This document shows, piece by piece, positions 17,641-62,550 of a DNA stretch of 64,000 nucleotides (position 1 is its first letter; each line of letters begins with the position of its first letter). The stretch spans positions 4,933,863-4,997,862 of the forward strand of contig CAJINV010000003.1 in NCBI GenBank assembly GCA_905178155.1, written 5' to 3'. The notes under the pieces are model-generated. The model did no database searches. It saw only the letters and a list, made by a program, of their open reading frames with translations, and was not told the origin of the DNA. A program made the position numbers and the translations under genes. Source of the stretch: Amoebophrya sp. A120 (Eukaryota; Protista; Dinoflagellata).

Positions 17641-19745
17641 CTACAACCACAGCGAGACGAAATACATGACCCAGAGCACCTTGAACTGCACGCCGTAAAG
17701 ATCATGCGCATCGATCTTTGCAAGGTAGGCCAAGTAGAATCGGTACAGCGCGTAGAAGAGAAAGTTCCACAGGGGAGGCGTCGTCGCAACCGCATGTGCT
17801 CGCTCCGGCGTGTATCTCGGCCCGGCGAACGCCAACGAAAGAGATGAAGAAGGTGCTGGGCCAGTCGTTGCCGCAGCGGACGACAAACCGCTTTTACCCG
17901 GAACAAGCTGTAATGAACAACAACTATCGACCAGTCGATACAGCCCTGGTTCTGCCGTGTCCCACCCGTAGAGCTCGGTCGTTCTCGAAAAAATTTCCCG
18001 CGCAAAAGTGACGGGCGAGAATAGAAACGTGGCGAAGTAGGCACCGGTGGGGACAGCTTCTGCATCGTCTCCTGTGTGAAGCTTTATTCTCGACACTGGA
18101 GGATAGTGGTCTAACGCGAATTCTTTCGCTGGCTGCACCACATTGACGTGGTACCACACCAGGTAGAGGTATCCTGAGTAAAAACGTACCCACACCAGAG
18201 TCAGGATGGGGATTTTGCAACACAAACCTAGGAGTTTTGTGAGTCACGCATGACAAGTTGCGCTCTGCAGTGTAGTGCAGGTTAGCAAGTGCAGCCGCAT
18301 CACAAATCCAGCTGCTCATCCTGTTCACAGCATCACAAATTCCAAAACACGATTGGAAATGGCTCTCATGGGGAGGCGCATTACAAGTCTTCCTGTCTTT
18401 GCAAATCTGCATCACAACTCTGGTGTGGGTACGTTTTTACTCAGGATAAGAGGGCGCAGGGAAGATGGTGTGCCAGCAAGTCGAAGAATCTGAAGGGATT
18501 TCCCCGGAGTCGGATGCGGTTGTCCACGAGCAAACACCTTGGGTGGATATCAAATGCAAATATCAATATGTCTGGGTCTGGAAGAATGCAAGTTTGTCAT
18601 GCTTGTCTGGCATGGCTCTATAAATCTGTGATGCAGGAGCAGGAAAAGGGCCTTTTGCCTGTCATGCAAAAACGCAGTTTGTCATGCGAAAAACGAAACA
18701 CACAGCAGCGCAAAAACTTGTCATGCTGGGCTCCATATTGCACTGCGCCCAATAATCGGAAATTTGCATCACAAGTTTCCAGACCCAGACATATTTGCAA
18801 TGCATAGTGGACCCACACAAACAAAAACGCAATCAGCGCCACGTGAATGATGGTCGCCCGGATCGCCCGTGCGTAGTCGTCTAGAAAGGACCCCGGCAAG
18901 AAAACGTGGACCGCAAGCGCCAGCAGTGTCCAAGACGTGAAATACCGGCAGTTGACACTCAAGGCGAAATGATAGAAAAGGAGCGAGTAGGAACACAATT
19001 GCTCCTCTTCTCCTGCTGGAAAGGCACTTGATGTACTGCTGACACCACTACACGAGGCCGCTTTGTTGTTTGCACCAGCAGGCATGCAGTTCTTCAACGC
19101 CGCCGCCGACAGGACAATACTCGTCCGCTTCCTTGGCGTTGTAAGCCCACTGGGAGTGCTGTCGAGAACGACGCACCCATCGACGAAAGGCGACAGGGTA
19201 CCACTTCTACTCTCCGCCTTGCAAGAACCCTTGCCGTGATGTTCCTTCCCGGGACTGCTTTGCTCGGAATCCGTTTCCGTGCTTGGCGTTCGCGACACTG
19301 ATATGGATGTGTCAGAGTTGAAATCGACAAAGTTGAAATAATTTGTCATGCATAAAATGGACGCCAGTTGGAACCCAGTTAGTAAGTGGCGCATGACAAA
19401 TTTCGGTGGTCCCTAAATCCAGTTTGTCATGCTGTTTAGGCAAAGAAGAGTGATTTTCTCATGCTACTTTAGCAGCTCGAGCTGTAGCCCCCAACAGGCT
19501 TACAATCGGCCTCACTTGCCTGCTCTGCAACGCACGTGCCTCTGGTCATGCATTTTATGCATTACAAATTATTTCAACTTTGACGATTTCAAACCTGACG
19601 CTTCCATAACTGAAATAGACGGCGTATCGTCGCTGTCGCCTGTCCAGTTCGGCACCAATTGGGATTTTCGCCGGGTAAGGGACACATGCCGGCGAAGCGC
19701 TGCGAGATCAAGAAAGACCTCGGCGCCAACTTCCTCCGTAGTCAT
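17641..19745 (-). CDS. Multi-pass membrane protein interrupted by three TIR elements; weak FAR-17a/AIG1-like motifs
   Basis: Removing elements 19302-19608, 18548-18806 and 18170-18448, each with one TSD copy, gives one ORF: MTTEEVGAEV...DDTPSIS|VSRTPS...FLFVWVH|PRCLLVDN...HHLPCAL|YLVWYHV...VSLWL*. It contains YFTSW and HHLP motifs. Confidence 0.8.
18170..18448. mobile_element. Introner/MITE-like element, TIR family B (279 bp)
   Basis: Perfect 32-bp TIR TATCCTGAGTAAAAACGTACCCACACCAGAGT. Perfect TSD AGAGG at 18165-18169 and 18449-18453. Six GCA(T/A)NACA motifs inside. Removal restores the frame. Confidence 0.95.
18548..18806. mobile_element. Introner/MITE-like element, TIR family A (259 bp)
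   Basis: Left end TATCAAATGCAAATAT(CAATAT)GTCTGGGTCTGGAA; right end TTCCAGACCCAGACATATTTGCAATGCATA. Perfect TSD GTGGA at 18543-18547 and 18807-18811. Removal restores the frame. Confidence 0.95.
19302..19608. mobile_element. Introner/MITE-like element, TIR family C (307 bp)
   Basis: About 58-bp imperfect TIR TATGGATGTGTCAGAGTTGAAATCGACAAAGTTGAAATAATTTGTCATGCATAAAATG. Perfect TSD ACTGA at 19297-19301 and 19609-19613. Removal restores the frame. Confidence 0.93.
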
Positions 19746-20325
19746 TTTTGAGATAGATCTTCGAGCGCGGATAATGCTGAATTCAGGCGAAGTAAGTAAT
19801 TTAAAGAATCATACAACTGCACAAAAAACTCCCTACCGGACTGTGATCGCATTGTATAGTGTACTTGTTTTCATGGGCTACGAGTACGGGTAATCTCACG
19901 CCTCCGGGGCGGGGACCTGCTGTTGCAGCGATGTAGTGTGCACCAAACTTTTTTTCAAAACGACACGACTACTTGGCATCGCTGTTATATCGACCCGAGA
20001 GAGTAGCTCGCTGATAGGCTTCCATGTAATTAGTAGACTCGATAGAAATTGTGAATTTTAATTGTTCTCACAAGCCTCGCTCACAGTCACTCTCTCCCAT
20101 AGCAACTTGGGGCCAAAAAAAAAAACCGATTCGACTGAATTTTCAAAGTACTTACTTCTGTATCTCTATCTGCAAAAGGACAGAGAACGGCATTTGCCGA
20201 CACGCCCGCAACGTAACATGCAACGCTTGCGCAAGAATAATACTGGTGAGTTTTCTGTTGGCTCATCATTTTTTCTGCATCAAAGCTTTGTAGACATCGT
20301 TACACTGTTCTTAACTTTTAGTTCA

Positions 20326-21562: not shown

Positions 21563-22334
21563 CTTGTGCAACCAGAGCGACTCTCCGTCAGTACTTCTAA
21601 AAAAAAGCACTTATAAACGAGCACTCTACTTGAGCTAAAGCTTGAATGCGATTCACTGTTCAGCAAGCTAAATTTCAGAGGTTGAATTGCATATACACTT
21701 TTTTCATTGACTGCTGTCTCTTGATGTAGTAGGCGAATAAATATTTTTAAACCATTACAGTTACAGTTTCGCGCGTGCGCCTCCTTCTCGTGCACCAGAC
21801 AAGCTTCCTCTATTGTTATTCGACTTCACACAGCAACAAGTCAACCACGCCACTCGCTGCACACGTGGTGCTACATTTTGCACAACGTCAATCTCAATTT
21901 TTTCGATCACCTACATTTTCTCTGTAACTGGACGTCCATTGATTGTCGAGAAGCGGCACCAAACGCAACTACATGGAACACATTTTTTTACGACCAGACA
22001 TATATTCGAAACGTCAATTGTCCACAAAGTTCACCCGATATTCTTATCGTTTTCGGTTGGAATGGCGAATGAAAGGACCGGACTCAATAAACGTCGATGG
22101 TTTTTACTTCCGTGCTGTAGTACTTTTTTCTATGCACAGTATGTGGGTCGTCTTAACGTCAATATGCTCATGAATGAATATTACATCTTCATCCTCTGTC
22201 GAAACATGTGTATGTGATTGTGCGTTTTAGTTCTTTTCGTGCCCATTCTACACGTACAAAGTAGCTAAGTAAGTGCGTATCTATCATGAAGAAAAAAAGG
22301 TGGGATCGTGTCGCATACGGGTCTCGTCTTGCTC

Positions 22335-23384
22335 CTATTTCCTATTTTTCTCTAACTTTTCCCGCGTACGCCGTTCGTTCCCTTCGACGAGCATTAAGGG
22401 TGTATCATCGCCTTCTTCCTTACAGATCGCCCGCATCTTGGCACACACCTGCAGAAGCTCTTTCCACTGCTTCGCTTTGCGCAGCTTTGGCAACTCGTCG
22501 TCTAGCCAGTCGTACTGCCTTCGCCGGGCGTCACTTTCCGCCAGCTCCGCGGGGCCCAAACTGCAAACTGGGCACTTGCAGACGAAACCGTAGTCGCGCT
22601 GGAACACCTGCTGCCGGAAGCCGTGGTCGTGCCAGAACCCGATGTAGGAAAATGTGAGCTCTTCTCCTTTCTCCACGTTCCTGGCAGCAAAAACCGTGAC
22701 CTTTCCAGCCTGAACACGTCGAGTGCAATTCGGACTGCAGGAGTGGTTCAGCCTCGCAGTCAGCAAAAACAGCATGTCGCTGGACACACTTCCTCTAGTG
22801 CTTCCGCCAGCCACGTCCGCCATGCGTGTGGTCTCCTCGGGCTGAAAAGCGTTTGTGGCGAAAGTTTGGACGAGCTGGTGGGGGGATAATTCTGCAAAAC
22901 GACTGTTGTTGCTCTTGTTCGCCAGCGACCGCACTCTGCTCTTATCGCTCTCGGCTAAGGCGGAGAACTGGCCCCAGAGCATGGAGATCTCCTCTGGATG
23001 GAAAGAGTGGCTTGTGGCAAATTGTACCGGTCTGCAGTGGGAGAGCACCGGCGTTTCGACCCACAGCAGCTCTCCCTTCTGCACCGCCTCCAAGGCAATA
23101 ACGCCCTTCCCGCGTCCATCTACTTCCATCACGCGGAAGGCATTTGCGCGCTCACTTGTAACACGAGTGGTTTGCAGCTCCCCGTCCGCGGTGTCTTCGA
23201 ACTGCAGGTTCGTCGCCTTCACGCTTAAACAGGCCTCGTCGCTCGCGAGGCGGATTTGGAAACGATTTTTGTCGGGAAGGTACTTCAAAACTTTGGCTCG
23301 TGCCCCATTCAACTCTGGTCGGCTCTGAAGTCCCGCGATTTTGGCCTGGAGACCGGCCTGCGACGCCGCGCACAGTTGTGTCAT
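22335..23384 (-). CDS. SET-domain lysine methyltransferase (SMYD/Set5-like)
   Basis: Motifs GRGKGVIA, ARLNHSCSPNC and KGEELTFSY, and post-SET YGFVCKCPVC. Single ORF. Confidence 0.92.
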   Translation of the reverse strand: MTQLCAASQAGLQAKIAGLQSRPELNGARAKVLKYLPDKNRFQIRLASDEACLSVKATNLQFEDTADGELQTTRVTSERANAFRVMEVDGRGKGVIALEAVQKGELLWVETPVLSHCRPVQFATSHSFHPEEISMLWGQFSALAESDKSRVRSLANKSNNSRFAELSPHQLVQTFATNAFQPEETTRMADVAGGSTRGSVSSDMLFLLTARLNHSCSPNCTRRVQAGKVTVFAARNVEKGEELTFSYIGFWHDHGFRQQVFQRDYGFVCKCPVCSLGPAELAESDARRRQYDWLDDELPKLRKAKQWKELLQVCAKMRAICKEEGDDTPLMLVEGNERRTREKLEKNRK

Positions 23385-23626
23385 GCTCAAAGGTCGTGGG
23401 ATTGTCTAGATCGATGACATAGAGTTCCGATTCAAGGCTGCTCGAGGAGCAGTCTACAATGAAATTATTTGGATTTGCGTTCTTCAAAATAAAGCACATA
23501 AGCCCAGACCGGCAGTTGGTGGAGATATTACCGCTAAAACCTCAGATGCCCCTGTGTCACTGAAAAAAAAAAACCCAAATCGTGGGAGAATGTCTTAGAT
23601 TCACTCTGGGCGCTCATTGCGTGACC

Positions 23627-23670
23627 CGAAGGAACACGGACCCGAGCTCGAAGGAACACGGTCCCGAACT
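23627..23670. repeat. 22-bp tandem duplication (2 copies) in intergenic DNA
   Basis: CGAAGGAACACGGACCCGAGCT followed by CGAAGGAACACGGTCCCGAACT. Confidence 0.8.
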
Positions 23671-32487: not shown

Positions 32488-32577
32488 CTTTTGTTGCAAA
32501 AAGCTGCTAAATGGATAACGACTCCCCCTCGTCCAGGCCCTGTCTTTACTAGCCCACACCTTCCCTGCTCCGACATT

Positions 32578-43520: not shown

Positions 43521-46500
43521 TCAGCCAATCCTTCTCGTATTTTCGAACTGGATCAGAGGACACTCTGCAATCGCGCCACATACTTCGACTCTGCCCGACT
43601 CTGACACATTATCCTTGAAGAGAACGCGGTCTCCTTTTTCGAACACCGTCCCTGCCAGGCCGTACTCGCAACCGCGAAAGTAGGAATTGAGACACCTGAT
43701 ATCCAGTCGGTGAGGAGCAGCCGCGCTGGTCAAAAATCCCCCTTTACGGCTCCCTTGTAAAATGTGGACGGCACGCCTGACATTCTCGAACGCCGTGCAG
43801 TTCGCCTCGTCCACGACTGCGCCGGATTGATAAGTCTCTGAGTCGATGTGTATCCAGCTACCGCTTAGAATTTGGTCGACTTCAATCGCCGCAGATAAGT
43901 TGTGAAAATTGCAACCCAAAACGCACACGGAGCCACTGACTGACTGAATTCCAATGGTACTGCCAGTACTCGGAGGCACGAGGCCGCGATCGCTATAAAA
44001 TTTGCAGCGAAGAAAGACCGCTGGCGCTATCGAGGGCCCACAGGCAACGCCTGCGACCGAGGGGCGACAAAGGTTGAAGCGGCAGTCTGTGAAATAAGGC
44101 CCCGGCTGTTCGAAACCCACCTCCGTGCAGCATGCTTTGGCTCTTGGTGCAAATAGCGCGTGAGTCGTGTTTTTGCTCCCAAGATTGTCGCTCAGTAAAG
44201 CCTTGAGGCCAGCCTGCGCCGCTTCAATAGTTGTGATTGCGTTCTCGCCGTTCTCCGCGCCCCACGATGTACCAGCTGGCGCAATCGCTACGGCCTTGAC
44301 TTTTCGCGCATCGTGTGCGTCCCGGCGGGACATAGGAGGTAGCCATCGCTTCTCTACAATCCTGCTCCCACAAACAATGCCCGCACGTTCAGCCCAAAGC
44401 GGATTCGCCTCGTCGCTAGGTAATTTACGGACGCACAGGGACGCATTCGGGACCAGCTTCAGGGCGAGAAGCTCTTCCGCTGTGGGGGCGATAGCATCAG
44501 CAGCACCTGTCTTGGGCCCACCGGCTTTGTACAATACGCCTACCCGTCCAGATCGTGCCTGCACACCCTCAACAACCATCATTGCGGTTGCAGTCTGGCC
44601 TGCCATCGTGCTGCCGCTCCATTTTGTTACTGCTTCGCTAGGCGGTCGGAACAGGATTCTGCGGAATTGGCATTGCCGATTGTAGACGCGGAGTGGCTAT
44701 CCACGGAAAACAAGTTTGTGTCTAAGTGGTTGCAAAGCTTGCACCTGTATCTGCATACCGCTCGGGTGGCGTCAACAGGCCTCATGTCTTCAAGATCCGC
44801 ATGCAGAAAGGCGCAACGCGTTGGCTATGCGACGAAGCCACTTCTAGCGCGCGCTAATTATGAAACACATTCAAACTTATGACTCATTGACCTATTGGAA
44901 GCCCTTACGTGCAAAGCAACCCTCCAGACCCAGACCTTGTTGCAAGGCATAGACAGCCAGGGCCTACCTCCAAAACCGCCGCGCCGTGCAGTTGGTCCTC
45001 ACGCTGGAAGCACTGCTTCGGATTGCGCGCCTGCATTCGCCTACGATAGCGCCGCGCCTCTTTTCCCAAGGGCCGGCCTTCGATCAGCAGGGAGCCCCGG
45101 ATCTCCAGCGGCTTCAAAATTGCTTTCCCCGTCTTGACAGTTTGGTCTTCAAGCAGCACGATTCGGAAGTACCGGTCGTCCGCCGGCGCCTGTGCAATCG
45201 CCTCTGCAAGCGTTTCGCAGTGATCGGGCACCAGAATGCAGTACGGATCGTTGAAGGGACTTCGCATAGCATCCAGGGAAAACATGTCTGGGTCTGGGAC
45301 ATTACAACTTGCGGCCCTGGCGCTGCCTTTGGATTCTACAGAGCTATGCATTGCGTGGGCAGGCACGGGAGTCCAGTTTTTGCCACGACGAGAGGCCATT
45401 TCTCATGCGGCATATATAAGGAGCCATCAGGAAGCCCTCACGAAGTCTGTAAAAATTTTGCGGCACCCATTAAGAACATCTTCATGGGTCATGCAAAATT
45501 GGGATGACTATGCGCGAAATCTGCCTGACGCAAACATATTTTCAGTCAGTACATCGCGACCGGATGCGACAACGCCCACGACGGCAGGGCGTCAGAATCC
45601 TGCGCCGAGAGGCTGCTTCCGCGGTGTGTTTCGTGGTACAGCTCGAGCGCCTCGCGACTCAGCCGGCTCGAGATTGGGTCGAGAAAGAGACGGAAAATGC
45701 AAAACGCGATCCGCTGGTATGCCCCGGCCACCCCCAGCTCCAGGATTCCCGTTTTTGTGTCCAGCTCCAGGCGCACGGTGGTCGCCTTGCCGCGTAGGCG
45801 GGACACCTGGCGGCGGCTGCGTGCCTGCTCGGACATCGCTTCACATGCCTCCCCGTCTGCGGGCCTTCCCGTTGGCGGCCGCGTGAGTTTCTCCAAGTGC
45901 AGAACGTACTCGCAGCGGTAATGTCGGTCGCCGATAGGTCTCCATCTCGGAGGCTGCAAAAGGTCTGCAAGACATTCACACTCATCGTCACGCGCGAGCA
46001 TCAAGGCCACGAGCGGGCGTCCGGGCGGTTGAAAGCGAGCCGCGTCCGTGTCGGTCGACCCCGCTCCGTTCAAAAAAAGATCGATAAAACCCCGCCGCAT
46101 TTCCTTGCCCATGCCGGGCGGGCGGAACTTCCCGCGCAGTCGGTGCTTTTCCGGAAGGTCTCGCAAGAGCCTCTGTGCTATGCTGGCAGAGAGCTCGCTC
46201 GTCAGAAACTCCGCGCTGCTGCAGTGGATGACGCGAAACCGCGGATGAGCCTTGAGTGTCCTGTGTGGCAAGCGGTCGGCATAGGTTCCAGCCGCGTCGA
46301 AACAGGGGCGGCCCGCTTGCTGCTTGTATCGTGTTGGTAGCTGGAAAAGGCTCGAAGTTTCTTGCGCTTCTGTGTACCAGCAGCGCCCGCTTTCTGCCCA
46401 TCGATTCAAGTCGCGATACATGTCGAACGCTTCGCCCTCCTGCTTCAACAACTCGGGCAGAAAAACGCCTCGAACGAATTCCCCTGGAGGTGTTGGCTTT

Positions 46501-48427
46501 GCGGCGACCCCTGATCGCTTACTGCGCAGAGCCTGTTCCTCCTTCTTTAGCAGCTCCTGCAATAGGGCCTCTTCGGTTGAGATCAGACGCGAAACGAGAG
46601 CAGCTCCGGAATCTACTTGCGAAAATCCGTCCACTTCTTCTCCCTCTTCCTCTGTGGCAGGAGCGGCTACTGCTTTCCTAGCCTTCCCCTTCTGGTACGC
46701 CGACAGCTTGGGCTTGACGCTCTCCAGAACGCGCAGAGGGGTCATGCCGCGAACCCACTCCAGCTTCGGCCAGTTGCGCCGGTCGTAAAAATCATCGCTA
46801 TTCACGTTCACATCCCTTGTTCGATCGAACTCTACGTCCACAACCGCGAAAGGCGTCACCGGGCGGCCTTCGTGCTCGACCTCGATCATGTTTCTGTGCC
46901 GCGGCTGCATTTTATCCTTGTCGAGCTTTCGCCTGTCCCTCTCTTCCTTTTGCTTGTCGTTGTCGTGCTTCTGTGCCTGGTTTTTCGAGAAGAGGGAATA
47001 CGTGGCCGGGTCGCGGCGGTGCCGATCGCGATACTCCTCGAGCGAGACCGTCTGCCCTTGGTTTGGTTCGTGGGGGTCGGAAAACTCCGGGCACCACATC
47101 CGCTCCCGCTTGTCGTTGAAGCAGGCGCGCAGCGATGGCGATGGCTTCGTAAGCAGGTCGTCGAACACATCCTCCCAGAACTCCGCCTCGAATTCGACGA
47201 CGCAGCGCGGTGCAGGTGCTTGCTTGGAGCTGCTGCTACTTAACGAACGAAGAACCTGGACCAGCTGCTGTCTGTCAACGCCCGAGTCTGTGCTCCGGTA
47301 CAACCATCGCGCGTCCTTGTTTGCCAATCGCACCAACCGGAGCCGCCACCCCTTTTCGACCCTGCAGCCTGCTTCATGCTCATGCTTCGCCGGCTTCTTC
47401 GCTCCAGCGCTGCGCGTCCACGGGTCGACCTCAAGTGCGCCGGATCCGGCGACCTGTCCTGTCTCGGTGCGGTTGTCCACTGTTTCTCTGACGTGCCCCG
47501 TCTCCAGCTCGATGTAGTTCTGCAGAAGTGTCAGCGTTTCGAGGTGAGACAGCTCGAAAGCCCGCCGCTGAGAGTTCACCTTGTCGGAGCAGTAGAAGTC
47601 TTTCATCCTTGGCAGGTTTGCCTTAAAAGCGGTCAGAGTCTCCTTGCGAATGACGCGGACAGAGTCTTGATCTACAAGCAGGGGGCGCTCGACCATCTCC
47701 GCGCTAGAGGGTTTTTCCGAATCACCTAGCGCCGTGCCTTTCTCTTGTCGCGCCTGTTCTTCGCCGCTGGCGTCGGAAGTCGCGGCGGCTACATCGGCGG
47801 AAGTTTCTTTGCCTGGCGGAGCTCCTAATGCCTTCCAGTCTAGGTGAAGAGAGATTTTTACTTTCTCCTTGTTTCTGGACCATCCGGTTGACGAGAAAAT
47901 GTAGCAGCGGAGCCCTTATCAAATGCAAACATGTCTGGGTCAGGGTAAGAGCTGCACGCGACTTCGCTTGTCGTAATAAATGAGTATCTATTGCGTAACT
48001 ACACCGCGCCGCTTTGCACGGCGTAAACGCATCACAAATTTTTCGGGTGGGGTGGCATTGCGAGGTTTGTTTCTGCAGTATTTTCTTTGCATGCACACAG
48101 GCTTCCACCACAACCCAAAATAAAGTGGCAACAGCCACACGCATTCATGCGTCTTTCAAATTTCGCATCACAAATCAAGACCCAGACATGTTTGCAATGC
48201 ATAACCCCAAGACCTTCGGGAAGAACTTCCGCATGACCATCGCGCGAAGCTCCAAAAACCCGGGAAAGAGCACAGAACTTGGACTGAGCTGCTCTAACGT
48301 CTGTGCCGCAGTTGCGCCGAGCTCCCCACCTGCCCCAGCAGCTGCGTCCTTGCCTCGGACCGGGGCTGTGACGTGAGTGCAGTTTTTTTCTTCTCATGCC
48401 GACTATTATCTCTTCTGCACGCGCCAT
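43521..48427 (-). CDS. Large protein with a probable C-terminal right-handed beta-helix (pectin-lyase-like) region, interrupted by three degenerate TIR elements
   Basis: Removing each element plus 5 nt joins ...FFPKVLG|(L/F)RCYIF..., ...HPVAM|RSPFNDPY... and ...EVGPG(C)|LRVYNRQ.... ILVPDHCETLAEAIAQAP...RIVLLE...KPLEIRG resembles a beta-helix N-cap. The start is uncertain. Confidence 0.7.
44698..44951. mobile_element. Highly degenerate family A element (254 bp)
   Basis: Right end TCCAGACCCAGACCTTGTTGCAAGGCATA; eroded left end TATCCACGGAAAACAAGTTTGTGTCT. The TSD is no longer recognisable (GTGGC/GACAG), but removal of element plus 5 nt restores the frame. Confidence 0.7.
45270..45551. mobile_element. 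Degenerate family A element (282 bp)
   Basis: Left end CATCCAGGGAAAACATGTCTGGGTCTGGGA; right end TGCCTGACGCAAACATATTTTCAGTCAGTA. TSD CATAG/CATCG (4/5). Removal restores the frame. Confidence 0.82.
47917..48203. mobile_element. Family A element with eroded TSD (287 bp)
   Basis: Left end TATCAAATGCAAACATGTCTGGGTC; right end GACCCAGACATGTTTGCAATGCATA. TSD GCCCT/ACCCC (3/5). Removal restores the frame. Confidence 0.9.
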
Positions 48428-48533
48428 GGATGCCTGATAAACTGCGCTCCATCTTATACGAATAAAACTTGAGAGGCTCTGCGCCTAAGTGCGTGCATTC
48501 GAAAGACTAAGCACATTAAGAAAATCTACATAG

Positions 48534-49262
48534 TTACGATGTACCATTCAGCTCTGGAATGTACGCCCATCCGCAGCGATCCTTCCGGGGAATTCGTGGA
48601 TCTGCGTGCCTGATGTCGCGGATTCGTGCTTTCTTGTCGACCTCGATGCCGAACTCCGCGAACCATGTCTCTGCGTCTTCCAATTTCAGAGAGTCATAGG
48701 CCAGGTCAATGTCTTCCATGAAGCAAAATACCGGAGTGAGGAACGGCGTGAGCGGCAACGAAATTCCCCGTGCCCAGAGCCACACGCTGATGAGCCGAAA
48801 CGTTTCCCGGTCAACATCCGAACGGAAGACCTGCTTGCCTGTGCGGGTAAAGGGGCACCCCTGGGGCCCACAGAAGTACGACACTCCTCCCTTGGTCTTG
48901 TCGCGCTTGAAGTCTTGCTCCCTCTCCACGTCTTTGGTTCTCAACCAGACAAAGAGCTCGTAGAAAATCCATTTCTCCAGATCACTGAGGCCGTCGCGCT
49001 TGCCGTACCGCCACAGGGTGTCACCCTTCCAGTCCTTGACACGGTTACCCTTCTCGTCCTCCCCGTCGAAGTTTGCCAGAGCGGCATCGATGCGGCGATT
49101 TTGCTCGTGGTTATATAGCGACTTTGCGAGCGCCAGCGCAGCGGGTTCAGATGGCGTTCGTAATTCGTCGGGCTGCTTCGCCTTTTCCGAAGTCTGCACC
49201 AGAGCAAACCCATGGCTATCACGCATGGCACTGGGCGTGGTAGTGCCTTCTGCGCTCGTCAT
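48534..49262 (-). CDS. Hypothetical protein, 242 aa
   Basis: ATG-started ORF with globular-protein composition. No recognised domain. Confidence 0.7.
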   Translation of the reverse strand: MTSAEGTTTPSAMRDSHGFALVQTSEKAKQPDELRTPSEPAALALAKSLYNHEQNRRIDAALANFDGEDEKGNRVKDWKGDTLWRYGKRDGLSDLEKWIFYELFVWLRTKDVEREQDFKRDKTKGGVSYFCGPQGCPFTRTGKQVFRSDVDRETFRLISVWLWARGISLPLTPFLTPVFCFMEDIDLAYDSLKLEDAETWFAEFGIEVDKKARIRDIRHADPRIPRKDRCGWAYIPELNGTS

Positions 49263-49959
49263 TCTTTCATTTGCGCGGTACGTAAAAGAGCCGGTGTGCG
49301 GTCACACCTGAATAAAGACAACCACAACACAGTCACAGCAAGACAATCTTCATATAAATTACAGGAGATACAGCATAACCATAAGCTTAAGCATAAAGCA
49401 CTAAAAAAATAAATGGTGCAAACAAGACGATACCAACAGCAGGTAGCGGATAGAAGTAAGTTTATTTCTCCAGACTGGCCAAAACATCTAAAGCAAAATC
49501 CACAATCACAAAAAAGACTCCGTACGAAATCCACAAACAGCAGCGAAGAACTTTTCGGATCGCTAAGATCGAACCAACAGCATCGTCAAAATGCCTCGAA
49601 TTGAGCAGGATCTTCCCAGTACTCCGAAAGATCAGAGACTGATCGTATGTGAAGAACCCTGATCGACAACGATAAGAACCTGTCTTGAGGCACAACTGCA
49701 CCAGGCTCGCTTTATTTTCTTGGCACAACTACAGGAGACTCACATCGAACACATAAGGCAATCACGCAGATCGCGCGTAATATTCAGTCATGATATTAGC
49801 AACTGCCTGTAATCCGGCCGCTTGCGAGGTAAAAGCTCGCCATGATCAGAAAAATACTCGTTGTCGCTATGGTGTCAGAACAAGAACATGTGACTAGGAT
49901 GTCTGTGCCTACTCTCGTTTCGTTGAAGAAAATCCAGGTGTAACCAACTTTACACGTTG

Positions 49960-51987: not shown

Positions 51988-52856
51988 CGGCCGTCCATTC
52001 GCGTAGTAGGGTCTGCGTCTTCTCTTCCTACTTTACTTATGTCAGTCAATAGGAAAGAACGATGTTCGGACAAATGATTGTCGCCCCTAGAAGTGGTATT
52101 GCGCGACAGACTTTCTGGTTGCCATAAAGTCGCATCAGTTCGGAAAAATGAAGCGTAAAATGAGGAAATCGCTGAGGGTAAGTACCGCTGTGAACTGGAG
52201 TTCTAGCTAATTGATTCCGAGGCATTACCGCTAATTTCTTTGTATCGATAATCAGAACAAAGAAAAAATTTGATCCCAGTCCGGCGCAGCGCTTGGATCG
52301 CTTTTGTGTGCACCACTCGAACAAGAACTCAATCTGATGAGACTGGTCAATTTTGGTGCGCTATGCCACGCGCAACGGTATGAAGTTCATTGATTGCGAT
52401 GATTCGCTTGAAAGCTAGATTCTACAGTGTAGGTAGGTCGAGCGCTTGAAGCTCTGTCAGAGTCAGTGGCTCTTGAACAAGCGCAAACTACATCAGCGTG
52501 TTACTACTGTGCAACTAGTATTTCTGGCAAGCGTCCTGGCATGGCATGACCACGGACTGCAATGCTGCTCTAAGCTCTGAAATTCGAAATCAGTGAGAAA
52601 CTTCTTGTAAGTTTGTGTGTGAGAAGATAGAATGAAACGTGAGACTGAGGATAAAAAGACGAAGACGAAACTTGACTACAAGTAATTTTACGTGTAACAG
52701 CGCGAGCCCGGACTACTATACAAGCGACTGTTTGGAGAAGAAGAAGACCACGCGGGAAGCTACAAAAACAGCCCTGATCTCATCAGATATAATTGGAACG
52801 ACAAAGTACAACCCGTTTTCGTTTTCTGTCGCTGTTCGCCTTCGAGTATTACTACC

Positions 52857-55800
52857 TCAGGCATTGAGCAGCCCCCACTTGCGTCGGTAGCTGTGAAACG
52901 CAGCCAGCACATCCCGCAGGTGCGGGACAACATCCTGCCCGCGTCGGTCCTCCCCGGTTAACAGTGGTGCGCGCTGCTTTGTGCCGCCGGGCGCGTGCTG
53001 CATGGTGACCGCCTGTATCAACTGTAAAAGTGTCTGGGTCTGGAAGAATTCATGTTTGTCATGCTTGTCTGGCATGACTCTGAAATCTGTCATGCACGTT
53101 ACCCAAGAGCTCCGTTTTTCTATGATGCAGAAGCGCAGTTTGTCATGCAGAATAGGCAACACCTAGGAGCTCAGAAACTTGTCATGCTGAGCCAGCATCT
53201 GTAGCCTCATCATGAGACGCCACCCAGCATCACAAGTTTCCAGACCCAGACATTTTTACTTTTGATAGCCTGCAGGACCTGCATGGCATTCTGTGCCTTT
53301 TCCATCAACAGCCGGCGGTTGCGATCGATGACCAGCAGACTGACGGTATGCAAGAAAAAAACTGTGTGAGTGTAACTCTGTGATGCAGAAAGTGGAAAAC
53401 TATTACACTTGTCATGCTGGATCTGCGTCATAGGCTACTTTCATACGTGTTTTCACGTACTAGCTGCGCATGACAGGTTTTGCCTGTAATGCAAAACGGA
53501 TTTGTGATTCTGTTTTTCCTACAAAGTTACACTTACACAGTTTTTTTCCTGGATAGACGGTTTCGTGCACCAAATCGAGCTGCAGGAACAGCACCCCGGT
53601 GTTCTGGAACAAATCATAGGTCACCTTGCGCGCCTTGCAGAAGCTGAAGATCTGCGAGTGCGTGCAGCGATCCAAGCCCGGCACCTCGCACGTGAGCACG
53701 ACCAGCGCCACTCGCTCATTCGCGGCGTGGTCGGTTTTGTGGTAGCCTGGGGCGTGCGGCGCCAGGTACAGGCGTCCGTCGTCGCCCAGCTGACACTGCC
53801 CAATGAACTGCAGCGCGGCAAAAGCGGAAGCAGCGTCCGTGATCCTGACGTCCACATCCACAACCCAGAACCGGTACGGAAAACACACGTTGCGCATCCT
53901 GTTGGTTGACCAACGATATTTCTAGTAAAGCTACAGCTCGTTTAGGTGGAGATGAGCACTTGAAAACGAAAGACAACAAAACAAGACGGACATCACGACC
54001 AAAGGATCAAGTCCAAGCCAGGCTGTTATTTCTGTATATTACCCTGCAACGGTGCACGGAAGCACGACATTCTCCCGAAACTCATCTTCGGTTTTTTCTT
54101 GCAACAGCTTGCGCGCCTGCACGGCGGCCTCTGGATCGAAGGGGGTTCCCGGGGGTTCCGGCGATTTGAATGGCGCCAGAAACTCCCCCGTTTGACCGGG
54201 GTCAAGTGGCCTTCGCTCTTCGGGCTCGAAGTCCTTGTTCTCGAAGCATACCAGATCCACCGAGGCGTGACCAAGCATGTCCTTCGCGGCTAAAACACGA
54301 CCTGGTGACAACGACCATGTTAATGTTGTGAACAGCTTCCGTTTATCACCGGCGAAATCAAAGTAGCTCGCGCATCAAAGGGTCACGCGATTGAAAGATG
54401 AAAAACAAGAGGTTTCTTGGAGTCTGTCGCTTAGCAAGTAGGTACCTGTGCTCTGTGCGAAGGCCTCACAGACGGGGAGCGGCACCTGATCGGGACTTTG
54501 CAGTGGCAGGAGGCACGCGACTGGCTCGAAGTTCGAGCTGAAAATGTATTCCGAGGTCGCGAGCAGCTGGGTGCGCTTTTCCGGTAACACCTGAAAATGC
54601 ACGGTGGGAAAGCTGAGCACCTCGCCGGGAACTGCCTGTATTATGCCGCCCCGCTTGCAGAATTCTGGGATGAAATCAGCCAGCTCGCTGGGGTACATGC
54701 GACCACCGCCGCAAAGCAGAGCTTTCTTGGGAAACGCACGCGCAACCACGTCGCGGGCCATTCGGATTAGAAGATCCCGTAACTCGGTACTAACTGGCCC
54801 GGCGCTGCTCACACGATACAAGCCCGCCACACGGTCAACGGTCACGTCACTCGTTCTTTTACCTGGTGAGATAGATCGATAGTACAAATGATATCGATTC
54901 CGACTGACAGAAAAATCAATGTTCCGCGAAATAAAACTTCGTCCAATCAACACCTTCTGCGGTTGCCGAGTGCAGGAAGCTTTCCATGGCCCGATGTTGC
55001 AGTTCGGCAATGCTCTTGCGCACGTTTGTGTCCACATGGAAGATGGCGGATCCCTTGCCGCGGAACTCGTCGTCAATCTTAAAAATCCATTTTGGCACGG
55101 TCGGGTGCTCGTAAAGCTGGACGCCAAACTGATGGTACAGCTCTTCCTCGTCGTAGAGGTCTACGCTGGTTGGCGGGTGCGGTACCTGCGCCAGAGTCAC
55201 CAGGCGCTGCATGGCGCTCTTTGTTCCGAGATAGTCCACGTTTTTCGGGTTTGCACCATACAGGGGAACGTTGAGCTGTGCGGACAACTGCAACTCGGCG
55301 AACGTGACGCCGTGTCCCGGGATGAGAACGCTGCGCTCCTCCCGTCCGCGGATGAGAACTTTTTTTTTTTGTTCGTCGGAATCCTCTTTTTCTCATGATC
55401 ATATAGATACTCACAAATTGCAAGAAATAATAATTCTTCTACGTAAAACTAGAGCCAAATCGATGATCAGCGACATTTTTAACAGGCCAACAGTTGAGTC
55501 GTTACCGCGCAATCGGTTCATCGCTCTGCGGGAGAGCAGCAAGCAGTGCGCGAGCGTCATGTGGGCGGGGATCGCGGGGCTGTCGAGCTTTTCCGGCACC
55601 AAAATTTGCAGACGGCCTTGCGGATTCTGGATGCCGCGGTACTCCATGACCTTCGCCATGTACTCCAACAGGTCCTCGTGCAGCGGCTTGGAGCACACCA
55701 ACACCACGTCCGGTGGCGGCTCGTCATTTTTTGGGCCGCAGTACCCCAACCGAAACAGCCGCGAGATTTGTGCGTTCTGCACGCTGGGAAACGAGTGAAT

Positions 55801-58800
55801 ACACGCGCGCCGAAACTCCGGCACCGAGAGGGACAACAGGTGGATCTCGAGCCGTCGGACCGTGCGGGCGGCCTGCGCAGAACTGCTGAACTTCGACCGC
55901 AGCCGCGTGAACCGCTTTACCTCCTCCTCGCGCACCAAATTAATCGCCTTCTTGGTTTCCACGAGGTTCTGGCAGCTCACCCAGGCAACCTGGATCGTTT
56001 TCGCGGCCCGGTGGAACTTCAGAAGCAGCGCCATTTTCAGTTTGCACTGAAACATCTGCCACCCGCCCCAGATGCACTCCGCCGCGAGCTCGCGTCGCAG
56101 AGGCCCCCGAAACCGCAAACCCGGTATTTCGTGCTCGAGGAACGGCAGCTCCTCCAGGTTCTTCACGCACGTGCCCACAATTTGCGCCTCCGAGAAGTTG
56201 CGGCGGTCGCGGTTCCCGAGGGCGAAAATCACGTCGATCATCTTACTAACGTCGATGATCGCCAGGGGCGCTTTCTTCAACTTTCGGCACAGCAGCGTAA
56301 ACACGTCCAGCAGCTGCGGCCAGTTGTTGCGCTGATTCTCCTTCAGGTCGGCGAGGTTCTGGAAAATGTTGCCGTATCGGATGCACACGTATCCCTCGAT
56401 CTCCTCCCGGGAGGGCACGTGGTGCAGTCCGTAGCGCGCCAGAATTTCGCGGCGCGCGAGGTCTTCCGCCTCGTGCTGCAAAGGATCGTCCTGTTCCTGC
56501 CGCAGCAGGTCTCGCCTACTACTACTGGAGGACGTGCCGTGCTTGCGGTGTCGGCCTTTCCTCGCCTCCCCGGCCACTCCAAACGACGTGTTGGGTCTTG
56601 GCGCGTCGGCGTCCAGCGGAACCAGTGCCGTCGAAGATGAACTGGGCGCGTTCTGTCCTTCGGGCGGTCGCCCATGCGGGATGCCGTGGGGGTCGGCAGC
56701 GAGATCGGCGCCTCCTTGACCACTGCGTGAGGCATGCACCGAAAGATAGGATTGCAGAACCGACGGAGCGGACGCTCCATCTGAACCGGCTGTTGGTCCT
56801 GCGTGGGACGTGCTGGTCCTTTCTCCAGGATGATCTGCGGCCGCACTTCCGAGGACGCCCCCGCCCTGTTCGTTCTCGTAATACAAGATCCTTTGCTTGG
56901 GTTGCTCACCGGTGGGTTTCGGACTCTTGTTGTCGAGCGTCTGGTCTTCGGGGATGTTCTCGAGCGCTCGCGGCAGCTGCGCCGCACTGGTCGACGCGTG
57001 TATCTGTAGGCGGGAAAACGCGGCGGGGTGCTCCACGGGATTGAAGTTGCCGAGCACCTGGGTGCGGAAGTAGCTCACCGAGTATTCGGCCGACGGCGCG
57101 TCGTCGTCCTCAGCGAAGGAGTGGCTCTTCTCGTCCTCCACGTTCTTCTTGGAGGACCACAAGACCCGCCTTACCCAGGGGTCGACGGCTAACGTCTCGC
57201 GCGCGATGATGGTGTTCGAGGACCGTTCGATTGTGTACGCCTCCTTCAACACCAGCAAGTTGTTGCTCACCAGCGGAAACACCAGCGGCGGCGGCTGCGG
57301 CTGGTGGATCTCGTCCATCTCCAGGCTGCGCTCCTCCTCCTTGGCGGACGATGCCGTCAGTCGCTGGAGCAGGTCCGCACTCAGCAGCTCCTCCCACACC
57401 GCCACGTCGGCCGGGTCCGTGGTCGTGCCGCCGCTGGTCTCTACGTAGTAGTAGATTTCCTTGGCAATCCGGTTGGCCTGCTTGTCGATGCTGAAGATCT
57501 CGCGCTGGAGCAGGCGGTCCTTCCTCTTGTCCACGGTGAAAAGCTCCTTCGACAACAGGTCCTGCGAGTTGCGATCGATGTGGAACACCTCCTTCACCAG
57601 ACGGTCCTCGTATCAAATGCAAATATGTCTGGGTCTGGGAGAATGCTAAATTTCTCATGCATATTTTCCATGCCCCATGAGGTCTGGAATGCAGGACCTA
57701 GCATGACAGGTTTTGCGAAGTCTCTGCCATGCCTATCCTGCATGACAAACTGCCTCTAAACTTGTTCAAAAGTGGACAGCTTTTGGTAATCACGCAACAC
57801 AAGTTTTTGTACGATCCAGACTTAGCATGACAAGTTCGCGTCCTTCCAGACCCAGACATATTTGCAATGCATACCTCGGTCTCCGACGCAATCACCTCCT
57901 TCTTCACTGCGTCGTGGCTCATGTGACTGCTGCTCGACGTACTTGCGGCAGGAGCTGCCCGCTGTTGTCCCGTGGACGACGAGCCGGAAAACATGCCCTC
58001 CTCCCCGGTTATGAAGGTGAAGTCTCCCGGGTCGTGGTCCATCCCACCAGACGAGGCTGCACCAGCTCCGGGGCCACCTGATGTGTGTACAGTTTCATGT
58101 ATCCATCTGCAAAAGGCCGTCCGAACAACATTCTCGTGATCTACTTATCGCGCAGTTTTTAGCATGAACGAAAGACCGACAGCACGTATGCAAAAGAACA
58201 AAGCATGTGTAGCTCCTCGCAAAGAATTCTTAAAACCTCCTTTCCCTTGCAACCGCGCCATTGCCTCTATACTTTCGTCTCTGAAAAGCCGCGTCTCATC
58301 GGGGCTGGGGCTCCGCAAGACAATAGCGTGGTTGAGGCTCGCCTTTTCCTCCTCGGACATAATCGGTGGCGCAGGACTTGGGGCACTACGAGGTATTCTG
58401 GGCAACAAGTCCGTGAGCGGCACAAGCACATCACACTCGCCTGATTGATTTTTCACTCGCTTTTGTCGACGCGATACCTAACAGGCGGCAGCGAAGTGCG
58501 TGACTTTTATTCCCGGGCGAAAAAGATGCAGATAATTATAAATGTCTCTAGCGAGCTACAAGTACTTTTTACCATGACTGTTGATGTAGCTGCGCTGTCC
58601 TGCGATTGCACTCCTGCTATTCCCCCGCGATGGCGGCTTGACGGGGCAGGGTACCACTGGCGTGTGGTCCAGTTTGACCATGGCCGTGGGTAGGTTCACC
58701 GCAGTTGCTCCTTTCTGCGCCAGCCGGTCGTGCGGAGCGTACATGCGCGATCGCTTTTGCTTCACCACTTCCTGCAAACCGGGCGTGAGATCCACCGACG

Positions 58801-59850
58801 CGGGCAAGAATCCGCGATTTCGCAACGAATAAAGCCCGCATTCTAAATCTCGCTCCGTGAGTTCTGGGGGCTCTGCGCCGGGGTCCTTTCGATTGATTCG
58901 CGGAAGGATCCTGATGAATCAGAATGTGACACGCCTAGCTATCCAAAATAACGTATAATTTTTGGTCGAACAAGATGCACACAGAATTTGCTCCACATCT
59001 TCGCCCCAATCCACTGTAGAAGGAGAAGAAACCCGAAGCCGCACACTACTAAAAGTATGGGAATGGGCTGCATCTATTACAGATGAGAGCATGATGAAAA
59101 TCAAAATGAAGGACTGAATAAATTAATATCTCCAAAATCTTGGATCTTCAAAGAAACACCTCTTGGACGCGGCAGTCTTCCCGCGGTGAACGGATGACCG
59201 CGACCGGGGTCGGGCGGTGGAGGACGAGGATCCGCCGGCCACCTCTTGTGGCGTACTGAGCAGCGGAGGCACGACGCCTGTCCTTGTCGTTCGCGATGGT
59301 CGCCGGCCAAAGGTCGAGGACTTTCGCTTCGCCTCCTCCTGCTGCTCCAGTTGAGCTTGATAGGCCAGGATCTGTTGTGGTACAGCACATGATCTCCTCG
59401 AATCATAAACTCAGATTGAAACGACGGATTGGATATAGTTGTTGCAAGTTCGTTTCAAGTGAGAGCGCAGCAGCTTGGGTTCTTGCTCCTTTTCCTACGT
59501 TTATGTACTTCGTGAAAAATTCTATCAGAGGGTTGCGAGCCATGCGCTTTGATTTGAAAGCAATTGCATCGAACCTGCATGATGTATATACTTTTTCCCA
59601 CGCGGCGCACGCCGCGTGGATTGGTTCTTATGTACTTCGTGAAAGCGAGCGGACAAATCTATAATTGCTTTTCAAGTAGCGTAAGTCGTACCTCGGCTGC
59701 TTTGCTGCGCAAGTTCTTTTCTGCGGACTCGAGCCGCTCCCGTAGAACCCCCGTCTGGCTTCCATCTCCGGCCGAGTTCTCAAGTTCGGCTTTCAGACCA
59801 CGGAGATCCGCATGGAGGTCGTACAATATGCGACCGACCGACACCACCAT
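52857..59850 (-). CDS. IQCH: IQ-motif-containing protein H-like, multi-exon, with three TIR elements and several GT-AG introns
   Basis: Motifs AAKTIQVAW, EIHLLSLS, QNAQISRL, LGTKSAMQRL, WIFKIDDEFRGKGSA and GHASVDLVCF. Element removal joins ASETE|DRLVKE, VHETV|SLLVID and QVLQA|VTMQH. The 5' exons (58145-59850) are less certain. Confidence 0.8.
53016..53267. mobile_element. Family A element (252 bp)
   Basis: TIR TATCAACTGTAAAAGTGTCTGGGTCTGGAA / TTCCAGACCCAGACATTTTTACTTTTGATA. Perfect TSD GCCTG at 53011-53015 and 53268-53272. Confidence 0.95.
53347..53555. mobile_element. TIR family D element (209 bp)
   Basis: 31-bp TIR TATGCAAGAAAAAAACTGTGTGAGTGTAACT with 3 mismatches. Perfect TSD GACGG at 53342-53346 and 53556-53560. 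Confidence 0.94.
57611..57873. mobile_element. Family A element (263 bp)
   Basis: TIR TATCAAATGCAAATATGTCTGGGTCTGG / CCAGACCCAGACATATTTGCAATGCATA. Perfect TSD CCTCG at 57606-57610 and 57874-57878. Confidence 0.95.
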
Positions 59851-60399
59851 TGGGAGGAGATCGCCACTCCCACGAGGTGGCTACTCTGCTACATGGTCCT
59901 ACCCCCAGGAGCCGCCCCCTTCAGCGGTTCATTCCCCATCTACCCTTACGCTCTCACAGGTTGCGCTCCGAAAACGACGTAAAGACGAGGTCACGAAAAA
60001 ATTATCGTACCGAAAAATGATACGACGCCACAAAAAAAGTGGTATAGAAAGAACTGCATGTTTGATAAAGCAGACGAAGAGACTCTCAGCAACCAAGCCC
60101 AAAAATAAAAAAGGAAACCCTGCAGCCTTTGAAAAGTTGCTCTCGTGTCCGCGCTCAGGGTCTCTCGCAACCCAAGGTCAAGACAGCACACAGGTCTAAC
60201 ATACGAGTCGGTCGTGTAGAAAAGCCCTTGCAATCCGGTTCTGTCGCCGTCAATCCAAAGAGAGACTACGACTTTCGGTATGTCGCGCTCGCGTCTCAAT
60301 TGAAACTGAAAATAGGAATACATCTTTGCACATACTAAGCGATGGAGATTTGTACATATGAACATGTTGCAAAAAGGAAACAGCATGGCGCTGTTTTTC

Positions 60400-62550
60400 T
60401 CATGATGTCTGTGCCAGAAAATCTACAAGGGCGGCTTCAATGGCATCATCCACATTGTAATTCTTGTCTTTGAAAATGCGCCACAGCTCTGCTTCATTCG
60501 CAAGCGTTACCACTTTCTGAGGGTTTTCCGGAAGGCAGTCCTGCAGCTGCGTATGGAAGTCCTGGAAAGCCCCAAGATGCGGATTCTCTGCTTCAACATT
60601 CTGCTGCTGCGCTACGCCTCCTCCAGTTGCGCCGTTTGAAAGCGAAATACCGCCTCCGGCACTCAGTAGCTTGCGGACCTGGCTGAGGTTCAGCTGAGCC
60701 CCGCTGCCGGATTGTCCTCCGCCTGGTCCTGGTGCGGGCACGACTAAATTGTAGTGCTCCCCCCCTATGTAGGCCAGAAGTACGCAGGTCCCCGCAGATT
60801 TTTTTCTTGAACTCGCCAACGACTGCTCCCGCTTCGTTCTCAGCTCGGCGGCCCTACTAGCTGCGGCGGCACGCTTTTTTGCTGCTTGATGCAGCGTTTC
60901 CTTCTTCTCAGTTGCGAGAGGTCGCGCATCGCCAACTTTTACCGCTTCTTTGGTTTGTCCTTCTTCAGTTGTAACCCCCCGTATTTGTGATGTGGCATCT
61001 TCTTCGCCACTTGCTGCGGACTCCACGTTGCCCCCGAGCTCTTCGAAAGAAACGATGTGCAAATCGGAATCTTCTTGTTCGGAACGAACAGCAGCTTCGT
61101 CGTTTTCAACAAAAACCTCCTTTGGCGTACTGCCACCTGGCGTCTGCCCTTCGTGTGGCGTCTCGACGTGGTGAGTTGGGCACTCGATCTCGTAGAACGT
61201 GAACGAATATTCATCAGAGATGCTGCCCGCGGTGCTGCCTCCAGGAGCATTTTTCCGCGGGGTTGCGGCCGTCTCCCCCGCCGTACTGCGCTGAAAAATG
61301 AGTACGTCGACCGCAAAGTACCGACACAGAGCCAGAATCTCGAGCTGTCCGGCCCAAACGCCCTCCTCGCGCATGTTCGCCACGTAGTGCGCGTAGCTGC
61401 CGTCCGTCTATCGAAAGGAAAAATCCCCCCTCCCCATATCGAAAACGAAATTTGTGATGCTGTATTTGAGGTCACAAAACGACTTGTCATGCTAGAAGGC
61501 CAAGAGCCGCAGTCGTGGCCTCGTTTGCAGGCAATTTGTCATGCTGTTTCCCGCTCTCAGCTGCCTCCTATCATGCTGAAGATGCAAGGCTTGACCACGG
61601 CACCCAGCACTACAGTCCGTATCTTTTCCCGTGTAGCATGACAGAGCTGATTTGTGACAACAAATCTGCATCACAGATTTCCGTTTTGATATGGGGAGGG
61701 GGAATTTTCCTTTTGATACCGTCTCTTCGTCGAGGAACCACCGATACTCTTCCTCATGGGCGAGGAGCGTGTCGCAGCAGAAATTCCTGCAATCGCCGTG
61801 GAACACTGCGGCATTTCTGAAAACGTGCTGCGCGAAGGAGCGGAACAGGCAGTTGCCGTCTTATCAAATGTAAAAATGTCTCGGTCTGGAAGAATGCGCG
61901 ATTTGTCATGCAGCTTTTCCATGACCCATGAGGTCTGGAATGCAGGACCTAGCATGACAGATTCTCTGAGGTCTCTATCATGCCTTTCCTGCATGAAAAA
62001 CTCCATCTCAACTTGGTCAAAAGTGGACACCTTTTGGTACTCACGCAACACAGATTTTTGCATCATTCAGATTTAGCATGACAAGTTGGATTCTTCCAGA
62101 AGCAGACATTTTTACACTTGATACGTCTTCCGCCTGTCCGATCATCTGCAGGCCGCGGTCGCCCAGGTAGGCTGTATCAAATGTAAAAATGTCTGGGTCT
62201 GGAAGATTCTGACACTTGTGATGCACGTTTTGCATGAGCCATGATGTCTGTGATGCATACCCTAGGAATACAGATTTCTTGAGGGCTTCTTGATGCCTAT
62301 TCCGCATGACAAATGCCTTCTCAGCGTAGCAAAAATTGCATTCCCGTTGGTAATCATGCAATACAGATTTTTTTGGAATCCAAATGCAGCATCACAAGTT
62401 GCATTCTTCCAGACCCAGACATTTTTACATTTGATAGGCTGACAAAGCGCGCAACTCCGCCTCAGACGCGGTCTCGCCGCGCTTCCGGCGCTGTCGATTT
62501 TCCTTGCGTTGTTTACGTGATCGCCCATTCTGCTGCCTGCCTCCACCCAT
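60400..62550 (-). CDS. OTU-family deubiquitinase (OTUD3-like) with a possible C-terminal UBA/CUE-like domain, interrupted by three TIR elements
   Basis: Reconstructed MGGGRQQ...ALSA|YLGDRGLQMIGQAED|GNCLFRSFAQHV...FLDEET|DGSYAHYVANMREEGVWAGQLEILAL...LAYIGGEHYNLV, which contains the Cys-box, the W-G-x-x-E helix and the His-box. Confidence 0.92.
61409..61718. mobile_element. TIR family E element (310 bp)
   Basis: About 52-bp imperfect TIR TATCGAAAGGAAAAATCCCCCCTCCCCATATCGAAAACGAAATTTGTGATGC. Perfect TSD CCGTC at 61404-61408 and 61719-61723. Confidence 0.95.
61862..62123. mobile_element. Family A element (262 bp)
   Basis: TIR TATCAAATGTAAAAATGTCTCGGTCTGGAAGAAT / ATTCTTCCAGAAGCAGACATTTTTACACTTGATA. 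Perfect TSD CGTCT at 61857-61861 and 62124-62128. The interior is collinear with 57611-57873. Confidence 0.95.
62175..62436. mobile_element. Family A element (262 bp)
   Basis: Perfect 32-bp TIR TATCAAATGTAAAAATGTCTGGGTCTGGAAGA. Perfect TSD GGCTG at 62170-62174 and 62437-62441. Confidence 0.96.

Follow-up and report, generated by a model that had tools for sequence, protein, structure and literature searches.

Our data show that short elements lying in coding exons of the dinoflagellate Amoebophrya sp. A120 were inserted with a 5-bp target site duplication (TSD), are retained in the DNA, and are lost together with 5 further nucleotides in transcript contigs and public gene models, a loss for which GT, AG, and matching duplications are not needed. 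We found them in a 64,000-nt stretch of the A120 genome (contig CAJINV010000003.1), hereafter called the window, whose 12 elements are named here by their first position. The existence of such elements is no discovery, as RNA support, the TAT motif, and the 5-bp repeats have been public since 2021 and public gene models already contain four of the junctions. The accessible literature does not settle how tens of thousands of introns in Amoebophrya leave the transcripts without GT-AG borders and without a detectable U1. What the current analysis adds is a likely register of the cut, together with the exclusion of models based on DNA excision and on repeat identity. Judging from three decayed copies, one fixed register is likely: the 5' cut would fall 1 nt ahead of the initial TAT and the 3' cut 4 nt past the final ATA, giving a concrete and testable rule for the position of the cut. 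If this register holds genome-wide, borders that appear free of signals would follow a simple rule and intron annotation could be corrected. It would also give exact places to look for lariats or circles, and would explain how this transposon is able to enter exons at any position and in both orientations.

Transposon-like elements in coding exons

A sequence-only reading of the window had proposed 12 elements of 209-310 bp with TAT...ATA ends, and all of them were recovered at the same positions by two scans and a repeat search (the ends of 45270 have decayed to CAT...GTA). Duplications of 5 nt flank every element; they are perfect in nine, and the two copies match at 1/5 positions at 44698, 4/5 at 45270, and 3/5 at 47917. 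With a threshold of at least 18/25 complementary bases, the window contains 13 TAT..ATA pairs, eight of them with a perfect duplication, and each of 20 shuffles contains none; the pairs are not a product of chance. The terminal inverted repeats (TIRs) described earlier are indeed present, with the qualification that they are imperfect (16-30 of the first 30 bases matching) and weak at 44698 and 45270. The terminal duplex of 44698 amounts to -21 kcal/mol vs -34 to -61 kcal/mol in the ten less decayed elements, and the folding z-scores are -1.0 for 44698 and -1.7 for 45270. The left end reads TAT, seven looser bases, and AAA in 10/12 elements (19302 is without the AAA, and 45270 starts with CAT).

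The elements disrupt their hosts as had been claimed. When an element and one repeat copy are kept, a frameshift results in 7/12 cases and stops appear in all three frames in 12/12, and cutting the element plus 5 nt leaves the minus-strand frame open across all 12. The open reading frame (ORF) test alone does not fix the +5 length for 47917, 53016, and 53347, where it is settled by RNA or public proteins, and singles it out weakly for 19302. Sliding the junction through the duplication gives GT-AG or GC-AG in two of the nine intact elements (57611 and 53016), the same count as in the sequence-only reading, and in none of the three decayed ones. A GT or GC donor with an AG acceptor is found in 1/12 elements in the common register described below, and 10/12 are without any such reading by sliding.

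The elements are repetitive, with a summed contig depth of up to ~250,000 vs ~44 elsewhere, a value that is not a copy number. A pattern scan identified at least 158 loci (L001-L158) in one other assembly, from the same or another species, with no overlap with the unique sequence of the window; all counts for this second assembly are among the matches listed. Nine of the 12 elements have relatives that are 82-96% identical among these loci, which hold at least 319 different short elements; the 5-nt repeat is perfect in 240 of them and matches at 4/5 positions in 51, and none has a 6-nt repeat. An internal motif, TGT(C/G)ATGC on either strand, occurs 38 times in the 3,226 bp of the window's elements vs four times in the other 60,774 bp. 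Its copies mostly face inward from each end, are almost lost in the most decayed elements, and plausibly represent putative transposase-binding sites. Being short and non-coding, with TIRs, a TSD of fixed length, and many copies, the elements classify by sequence as non-autonomous DNA transposons akin to miniature inverted-repeat transposable elements (MITEs).

Two known groups were considered and rejected. IS3EU/GingerRoot shares TA..TA termini and TIRs, but its usual TSD, in the accessible parts of the reports, is 6 bp (PMC10045372, PMC6839031) vs the 5 nt seen here, and Ginger2/TDD requires TG..CA termini vs TAT..ATA in these elements. A viral scan returned three matches of only 22 bases, which are chance.

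Several further observations concern the elements. A possible thirteenth, more decayed element lies at 4304-4501, with TAT..ATA ends, a perfect 5-nt repeat, and a terminal duplex of -21 kcal/mol; removing it with 5 nt gives the best open frame among the three lengths tried (55 and 41 codons). The second assembly also holds five longer elements of 457-972 bp with intact ends, perfect duplications, and extra non-coding cargo (L063 3001-3972, L041 3862-4492, L065 2530-3025, L040 571-1051, and L021 3314-3770). None of the five contains a frame over 150 codons or one of transposase size, and if they are spliced, the length of the interior does not matter. At L059 3329-3608, the duplication is apparently 8 nt rather than 5 nt.

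Loss from RNA and the probable register of the cut

RNA-only contigs could be compared with the window at five elements (44698, 45270, 47917, 53016, and 53347), using runs X3-X6, which come from one sample and whose status as RNA derives from an automated guess together with poly(A), GT-AG joints, and uneven cover. The loss of exactly the element plus 5 nt, which the sequence-only reading had predicted for such a check, was found at four of the five. The joint at 53016 skips 257 bases (4/4 RNA-like runs, depth 19-56) and that at 53347 skips 214 bases (4/4 runs). At 44698, the joint 44691->44951 skips 259 bases with 2 ambiguous bases (2/4 runs, depth 3.8-4.4), and at 45270, the joint 45264->45552 skips 287 bases with 3 ambiguous bases (1/4 runs, depth 3.6). 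No RNA-like contig in the four runs bridges 47917. Two contig pieces in X3 end at 57605 and 61403, just ahead of the left repeats of 57611 and 61409, the latter with 391 further letters; these ends fit the element-plus-5 rule, the joint itself being unseen there. The same runs show a poly(A) end at 52389 and GT-AG joints.

Public A120 models, which were built from transcript alignments according to the accessible part of the annotation paper (PMC7789003), agree with these joints. Four elements (47917, 53016, 53347, and 57611) are already removed in them, and protein P0003 holds the three junction peptides expected from loss of the element plus 5 nt at 53016, 53347, and 57611. The ortholog P0004 from strain A25 aligns without a gap across the junctions of 53016 and 53347, and P0005 does so across that of 53347. 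Two further proteins inform on no junction: P0001 (A25) begins past the junction of 57611, and P0006, at 24% identity, is too divergent. Within 30 bases, no GT/GC-AG pair yields the public peptide at 47917, and splicing at nearby cryptic sites, an outcome that would have contradicted the earlier proposal, was not seen.

By contrast, run X1 is DNA-like, with a flat depth near 44. One of its contigs, 33 kb long, runs unbroken through three elements over 44001-53041, and the pieces listed for this run traverse the edges of elements at a depth of 36-45. No empty-site joint occurs in X1 among the 15 joints listed (there are 285 further joints). Excision at the DNA level in the manner of ciliate internal eliminated sequences (IES), which the earlier reading had put forward as an option, does not agree with these data, as X1 keeps the elements at single-copy depth and the RNA-like runs skip them. 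The elements are removed at the RNA level.

Element sequence was also seen in two runs that hold none of A120's genes. In run X9, 78 partial reads match the interior of 61862 (62037-62100) and continue into other sequence, and an element related to 61862 may be transcribed in another strain or context. In the raw RNA run X10, two partial reads fall on element sequence only.

Since perfect repeats let the junction slide over six positions, the decayed copies are the ones that bear on where the cut lies. Let k denote how many bases of the repeat copy upstream in the transcript leave together with the intron. The values compatible with the joint are -1, 0, or 1 at 44698 and 0 to 3 at 45270. At 47917, k may be 1 to 5 or -2, with 0 excluded by Leu294 of the public protein P0007; six cuts within 30 bases give the P0007 peptide, none of them GT/GC-AG. 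The sole value common to the three elements is k=1, in which case the upstream copy contributes four bases to the mRNA and the downstream copy one. This register places T at intron +2 and A at +3 in 12/12 introns, and the three canonical introns seen as joints begin with GTA. In the same register, 57611 is a full GT-AG intron.

The sequence-only reading had held that the TIR hairpin and the TSD together set the junction. The part of this claim that concerns identity of the TSD copies does not stand, because 44698, with a 1/5 duplication and a weak hairpin, gives an exact joint and still loses the element plus 5 nt; matching repeats and a strong hairpin are therefore not required. No publication that pins down the position of the cut or probes the mechanism in Amoebophrya came up in our search of the open literature; journals behind subscription and figures in Farhat 2021 (Fig. 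3, S19-S23), outside its scope, may already show it.

Candidate mechanisms of removal

We consider it probable, if by a modest measure, that these transposons in coding exons are lost with five flanking bases through a relaxed U2-type spliceosome that uses the paired ends rather than GT and AG. In this view, the outermost T and A of the element would occupy intron +2 and +3, as they do in the GTA donors of the host. U6 contacts the U at +2 and the A at +3, both of which are kept in the k=1 register. The TAT-N7-AAA ends, base-paired and probably protein-bound, would replace the missing U1 and AG in defining the intron ends, the U2/U5/U6 core would perform the chemistry, and a transposase encoded elsewhere, perhaps integrase-like, would spread the elements; none was seen in the sequences analyzed. 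In the accessible part of Farhat 2021, U2, U4, and U6 (and U5 in A120) and 83/89 spliceosomal proteins are reported, no U1 is reported as detected, and 15% of canonical A120 introns show the same repeat layout (PMC7789003).

A bolder and tentative reading, which we regard as doubtful, is an A120 splicing code of N-TAT(N7)AAA ... TTT(N7)ATA-N4. Here, the transposon ends would define the intron in either orientation without a G at +1, an AG, or matching duplications. A dedicated end-binding factor, possibly derived from the DNA-binding domain of a transposase, or else a non-spliceosomal enzyme, would undo the 5-bp stagger on RNA, so that any exon position would be safe.

The second assembly allowed several of these points to be assessed, with transcript direction assigned by coding potential alone (220/317 elements orientable); strands agree in 52/54 loci with two or more oriented elements. 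The acceptor expected for k=1, an AG at duplication positions 3 and 4, occurs in 20/169 perfect-repeat elements vs 12.5 expected (p=0.025, uncorrected, four positions tested). The first T is altered at 0/194 transcript 5' ends vs 4/194 3' ends, which is not significant alone. A codon test of which repeat copy is kept gave 14/15 for pairs with at least two mismatches and a purine/pyrimidine asymmetry of 37:12. Six pairs mismatched at 4-5 positions, most of which reflected wrongly called boundaries or an 8-nt duplication, were then dropped, leaving 8/9 (p=0.04) for 2-3 mismatches, 19/36 for single mismatches, 27/45 overall (p=0.23), and an asymmetry of 16:11; this test is weak. Targeting of proto-splice sites (duplication NNAGG) was not convincing (7/169 vs ~3.4).

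Other results weigh against a fixed register read by a spliceosome. Any slide gives GT/GC-AG in only 16/169 perfect-repeat elements, and G at the would-be +1 position is not in excess (59/169 vs a background of 31%). All 10 families of at least four members occur in both gene-relative orientations (74:83), which leaves no room for a fixed internal branch point and requires the signal to reside in the symmetric ends. Within TAT, the middle base is altered equally often at 5' and 3' ends (2 vs 2), and the third 6 vs 2 times, so the A at +3 shows no 5' preference. The codon test at duplication position 5 leaned toward k=0, both with all pairs (11/14) and after the six pairs were dropped (6/8). 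The k=1 register itself derives from contig joints of low depth at two elements and from a single residue in a public model; the aligner behind that model could have favored a half-canonical border. In addition, all RNA evidence is based on cDNA from one sample, possibly the same data as those behind the public models.

Some of these results are what would be expected if a separate machinery, outside the spliceosome, measured from the paired ends, with a nuclease and a ligase cutting the base of the stem at a fixed stagger and perhaps freeing a circle. We see this as a possible explanation, although a less probable one than the relaxed spliceosome. The elements act independently of orientation and require no G or AG, and the paired motifs are conserved at arm positions 1-3 and 11-13: the two arms differ there in 4-12/194 elements vs 46-109/194 at positions 4-7. 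In Euglena, moreover, a paired motif has a 3-nt donor and a 5-6-nt acceptor spacer in the accessible part of the report (PMC12501133), and k=1 has a similar 3-nt stagger (1 and 4). Yet the T and A at +2/+3 agree with the donors of the host, 57611 has canonical borders in the k=1 register, and the Euglena signature (N3-CDG ... CHG-N5-6) is absent from the intron ends here. The spliceosome is also largely present in A120 (PMC7789003), and Fritillaria is described in the available text as removing mostly non-canonical introns by a modified spliceosome (PMC13326754). As an observation in its own right, the two arms disagree at positions 4-7 in as many as 56% of elements, against conserved positions 1-3 and 11-13, a sequence pattern suggestive of a motif read by a protein more than of a simple hairpin.

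The remaining explanations appear far less probable. Template switching by reverse transcriptase across the hairpin between direct repeats would produce joints in cDNA only; a hairpin with short direct repeats is a known recipe for false introns (PMC8240250, accessible part), and the RNA data here are all cDNA-derived contigs. We nevertheless judge it very unlikely, since in that study the product was abolished when one repeat was disrupted, yet 44698 (1/5) and 45270 give exact joints. At 53016 and 53347, the joined contig is also as deep as the gene as a whole. Apart from the elements, the genes are intact and conserved between A120 and A25 (76% identity, with no gap at two junctions), which means that the elements must in some way be removed in vivo. 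Programmed excision of DNA, with transcription from an element-free genome copy, is scarcely plausible. Its appeal lies in the inverted repeats, TA-like ends, and precise restoration of frames, which fit transposase-type excision, and a minor empty-site population is possible because contigs drop rare variants and the joints examined were the 15 listed, with 285 further ones. Against it stand the X1 contigs (one DNA run), with the elements at the depth of unique DNA and no empty-site joint among those 15, and the presence of element sequence in RNA-like runs; we also know of no separate germline nucleus in Amoebophrya. Finally, we give almost no credence to the idea that the genes are pseudogenes or that read-through of the elements occurs, or splicing at cryptic GT-AG sites in their vicinity. 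It could apply to the six elements for which no direct joint or public model was seen (18170, 18548, 19302, 61409, 61862, and 62175). Exact joints at four elements and public models at four (two overlap) refute it for the other six, and the 47917 peptide is not reproduced by a nearby GT/GC-AG pair.

Related systems and host genes

The window belongs to Amoebophrya sp. A120, as proteins P0003 and P0007 are 100% identical to its exons, and the exon beside 53347 is 100% identical to P0003 vs 76% to the A25 ortholog P0004. Its elements are the published A120 introners (Farhat 2021; Gozashti 2025) and were thus already known; the sequence-only reading was right to place them with the introners of Amoebophrya, given their inverted and direct repeats, their repetition in the genome, and their removal from RNA mostly without GT-AG. 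The accessible part of Farhat 2021 describes A120 introners of ~240 nt, with TAT + 7 bases + AAA inverted repeats, direct repeats of 3-5 nt, strain-specific positions, and removal supported by RNA-seq, and we see no difference in kind from the elements of the window (PMC7789003). The position of the border and the mechanism are left open in that text, in agreement with the earlier statement that removal is unresolved in the literature. Gozashti 2025, of which 38 of the 58 A120 rows were available, lists families of 208-209, 252, 278-279, and 305-313 bp as TIR DNA transposons of unknown superfamily, with family 38 annotated as '5-bp TSD, TA/TA Termini' (PMC12130899). These families, compared by length and description, match the lengths of the window's elements; their splice sites, as annotated there, are mixed.

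More distant systems share some of these features, as far as the accessible parts of the reports show. Nonconventional introns of euglenids have paired ends, non-canonical borders, fixed unequal spacers, and TSD-like repeats, but they differ in their CDG/CHG motif, their lineage, and the circular products reported for them (PMC12501133; PMC11282704). Fritillaria borealis has MITE-derived introns with TIRs and TSDs that are removed without GT-AG, whereas its preferred ends are AG-AC and AG-AT and U1 is kept; its adaptation was traced to a duplicated U2AF and changed N6-methyladenosine (m6A) (PMC13326754; PMC11282704). Introner-like elements of the dinoflagellates Polarella and Symbiodinium also have TIRs and TSDs, and some act in both orientations, but they always carry or recruit donors starting with G and AG acceptors, while A120 elements mostly do neither (bioRxiv 10.1101/2020.10.14.339549).

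In the window, 14/15 frames of at least 330 codons lie on the minus strand, as do the four host genes and all 12 elements. The gene at 52389..59950 (5' end approximate) encodes an IQCH-like ATP-grasp protein (model P0003, 1622 aa) and hosts three elements, each with a perfect duplication, in addition to several canonical introns: 53016..53267 (252 bp), 53347..53555 (209 bp), and 57611..57873 (263 bp), the last being GT-AG in exactly the common register (57607-57874). The gene at 43521..49301 contains the three decayed elements and a GT-AG intron at 48366-48544, has a frame of 1587 codons after in silico removal, and matched no family in a Pfam search. Its elements are 44698..44951 (254 bp, weak terminal stem), 45270..45551 (282 bp, decayed ends), and 47917..48203 (287 bp), with introns in the common register at 44694-44952, 45266-45552, and 47913-48204, respectively.

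The gene at 60319..62650 (ends approximate) encodes an OTU-like deubiquitinase domain and also hosts three elements with perfect duplications. The first, at 61409..61718 (310 bp), splits the OTU domain, with Pfam positions 4-52 on the upstream exon and 56-94 on the downstream exon. The second, at 61862..62123 (262 bp), lies inside the catalytic motif of the domain, which we take to be Asp-x-x-Cys, and the third, at 62175..62436 (262 bp), in the upstream part of the gene; the ORF test supports both. In the gene at 17616..19810 (ends approximate), the ORF test predicts introns at 18166-18449, 18544-18807, and 19298-19609 for the elements 18170..18448 (279 bp), 18548..18806 (259 bp), and 19302..19608 (307 bp), all with perfect duplications.

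Minor observations concern the genes themselves. The public protein P0007 is a partial of 511 residues vs the 1587-codon frame at 43521-49301; this gene, expressed at a low level, is probably split in the public annotation. A direct repeat of ~17 nt lies at 59500-59660, inside the first intron of the IQCH-like gene; contigs of both DNA and RNA break off or fork there and the depth climbs to 366, indicating that the sequence is repeated elsewhere. Other genes in the window include a SET-domain gene at 22338-23405 and a RING-finger gene at 37985-39268, and most other long frames are without a Pfam family.

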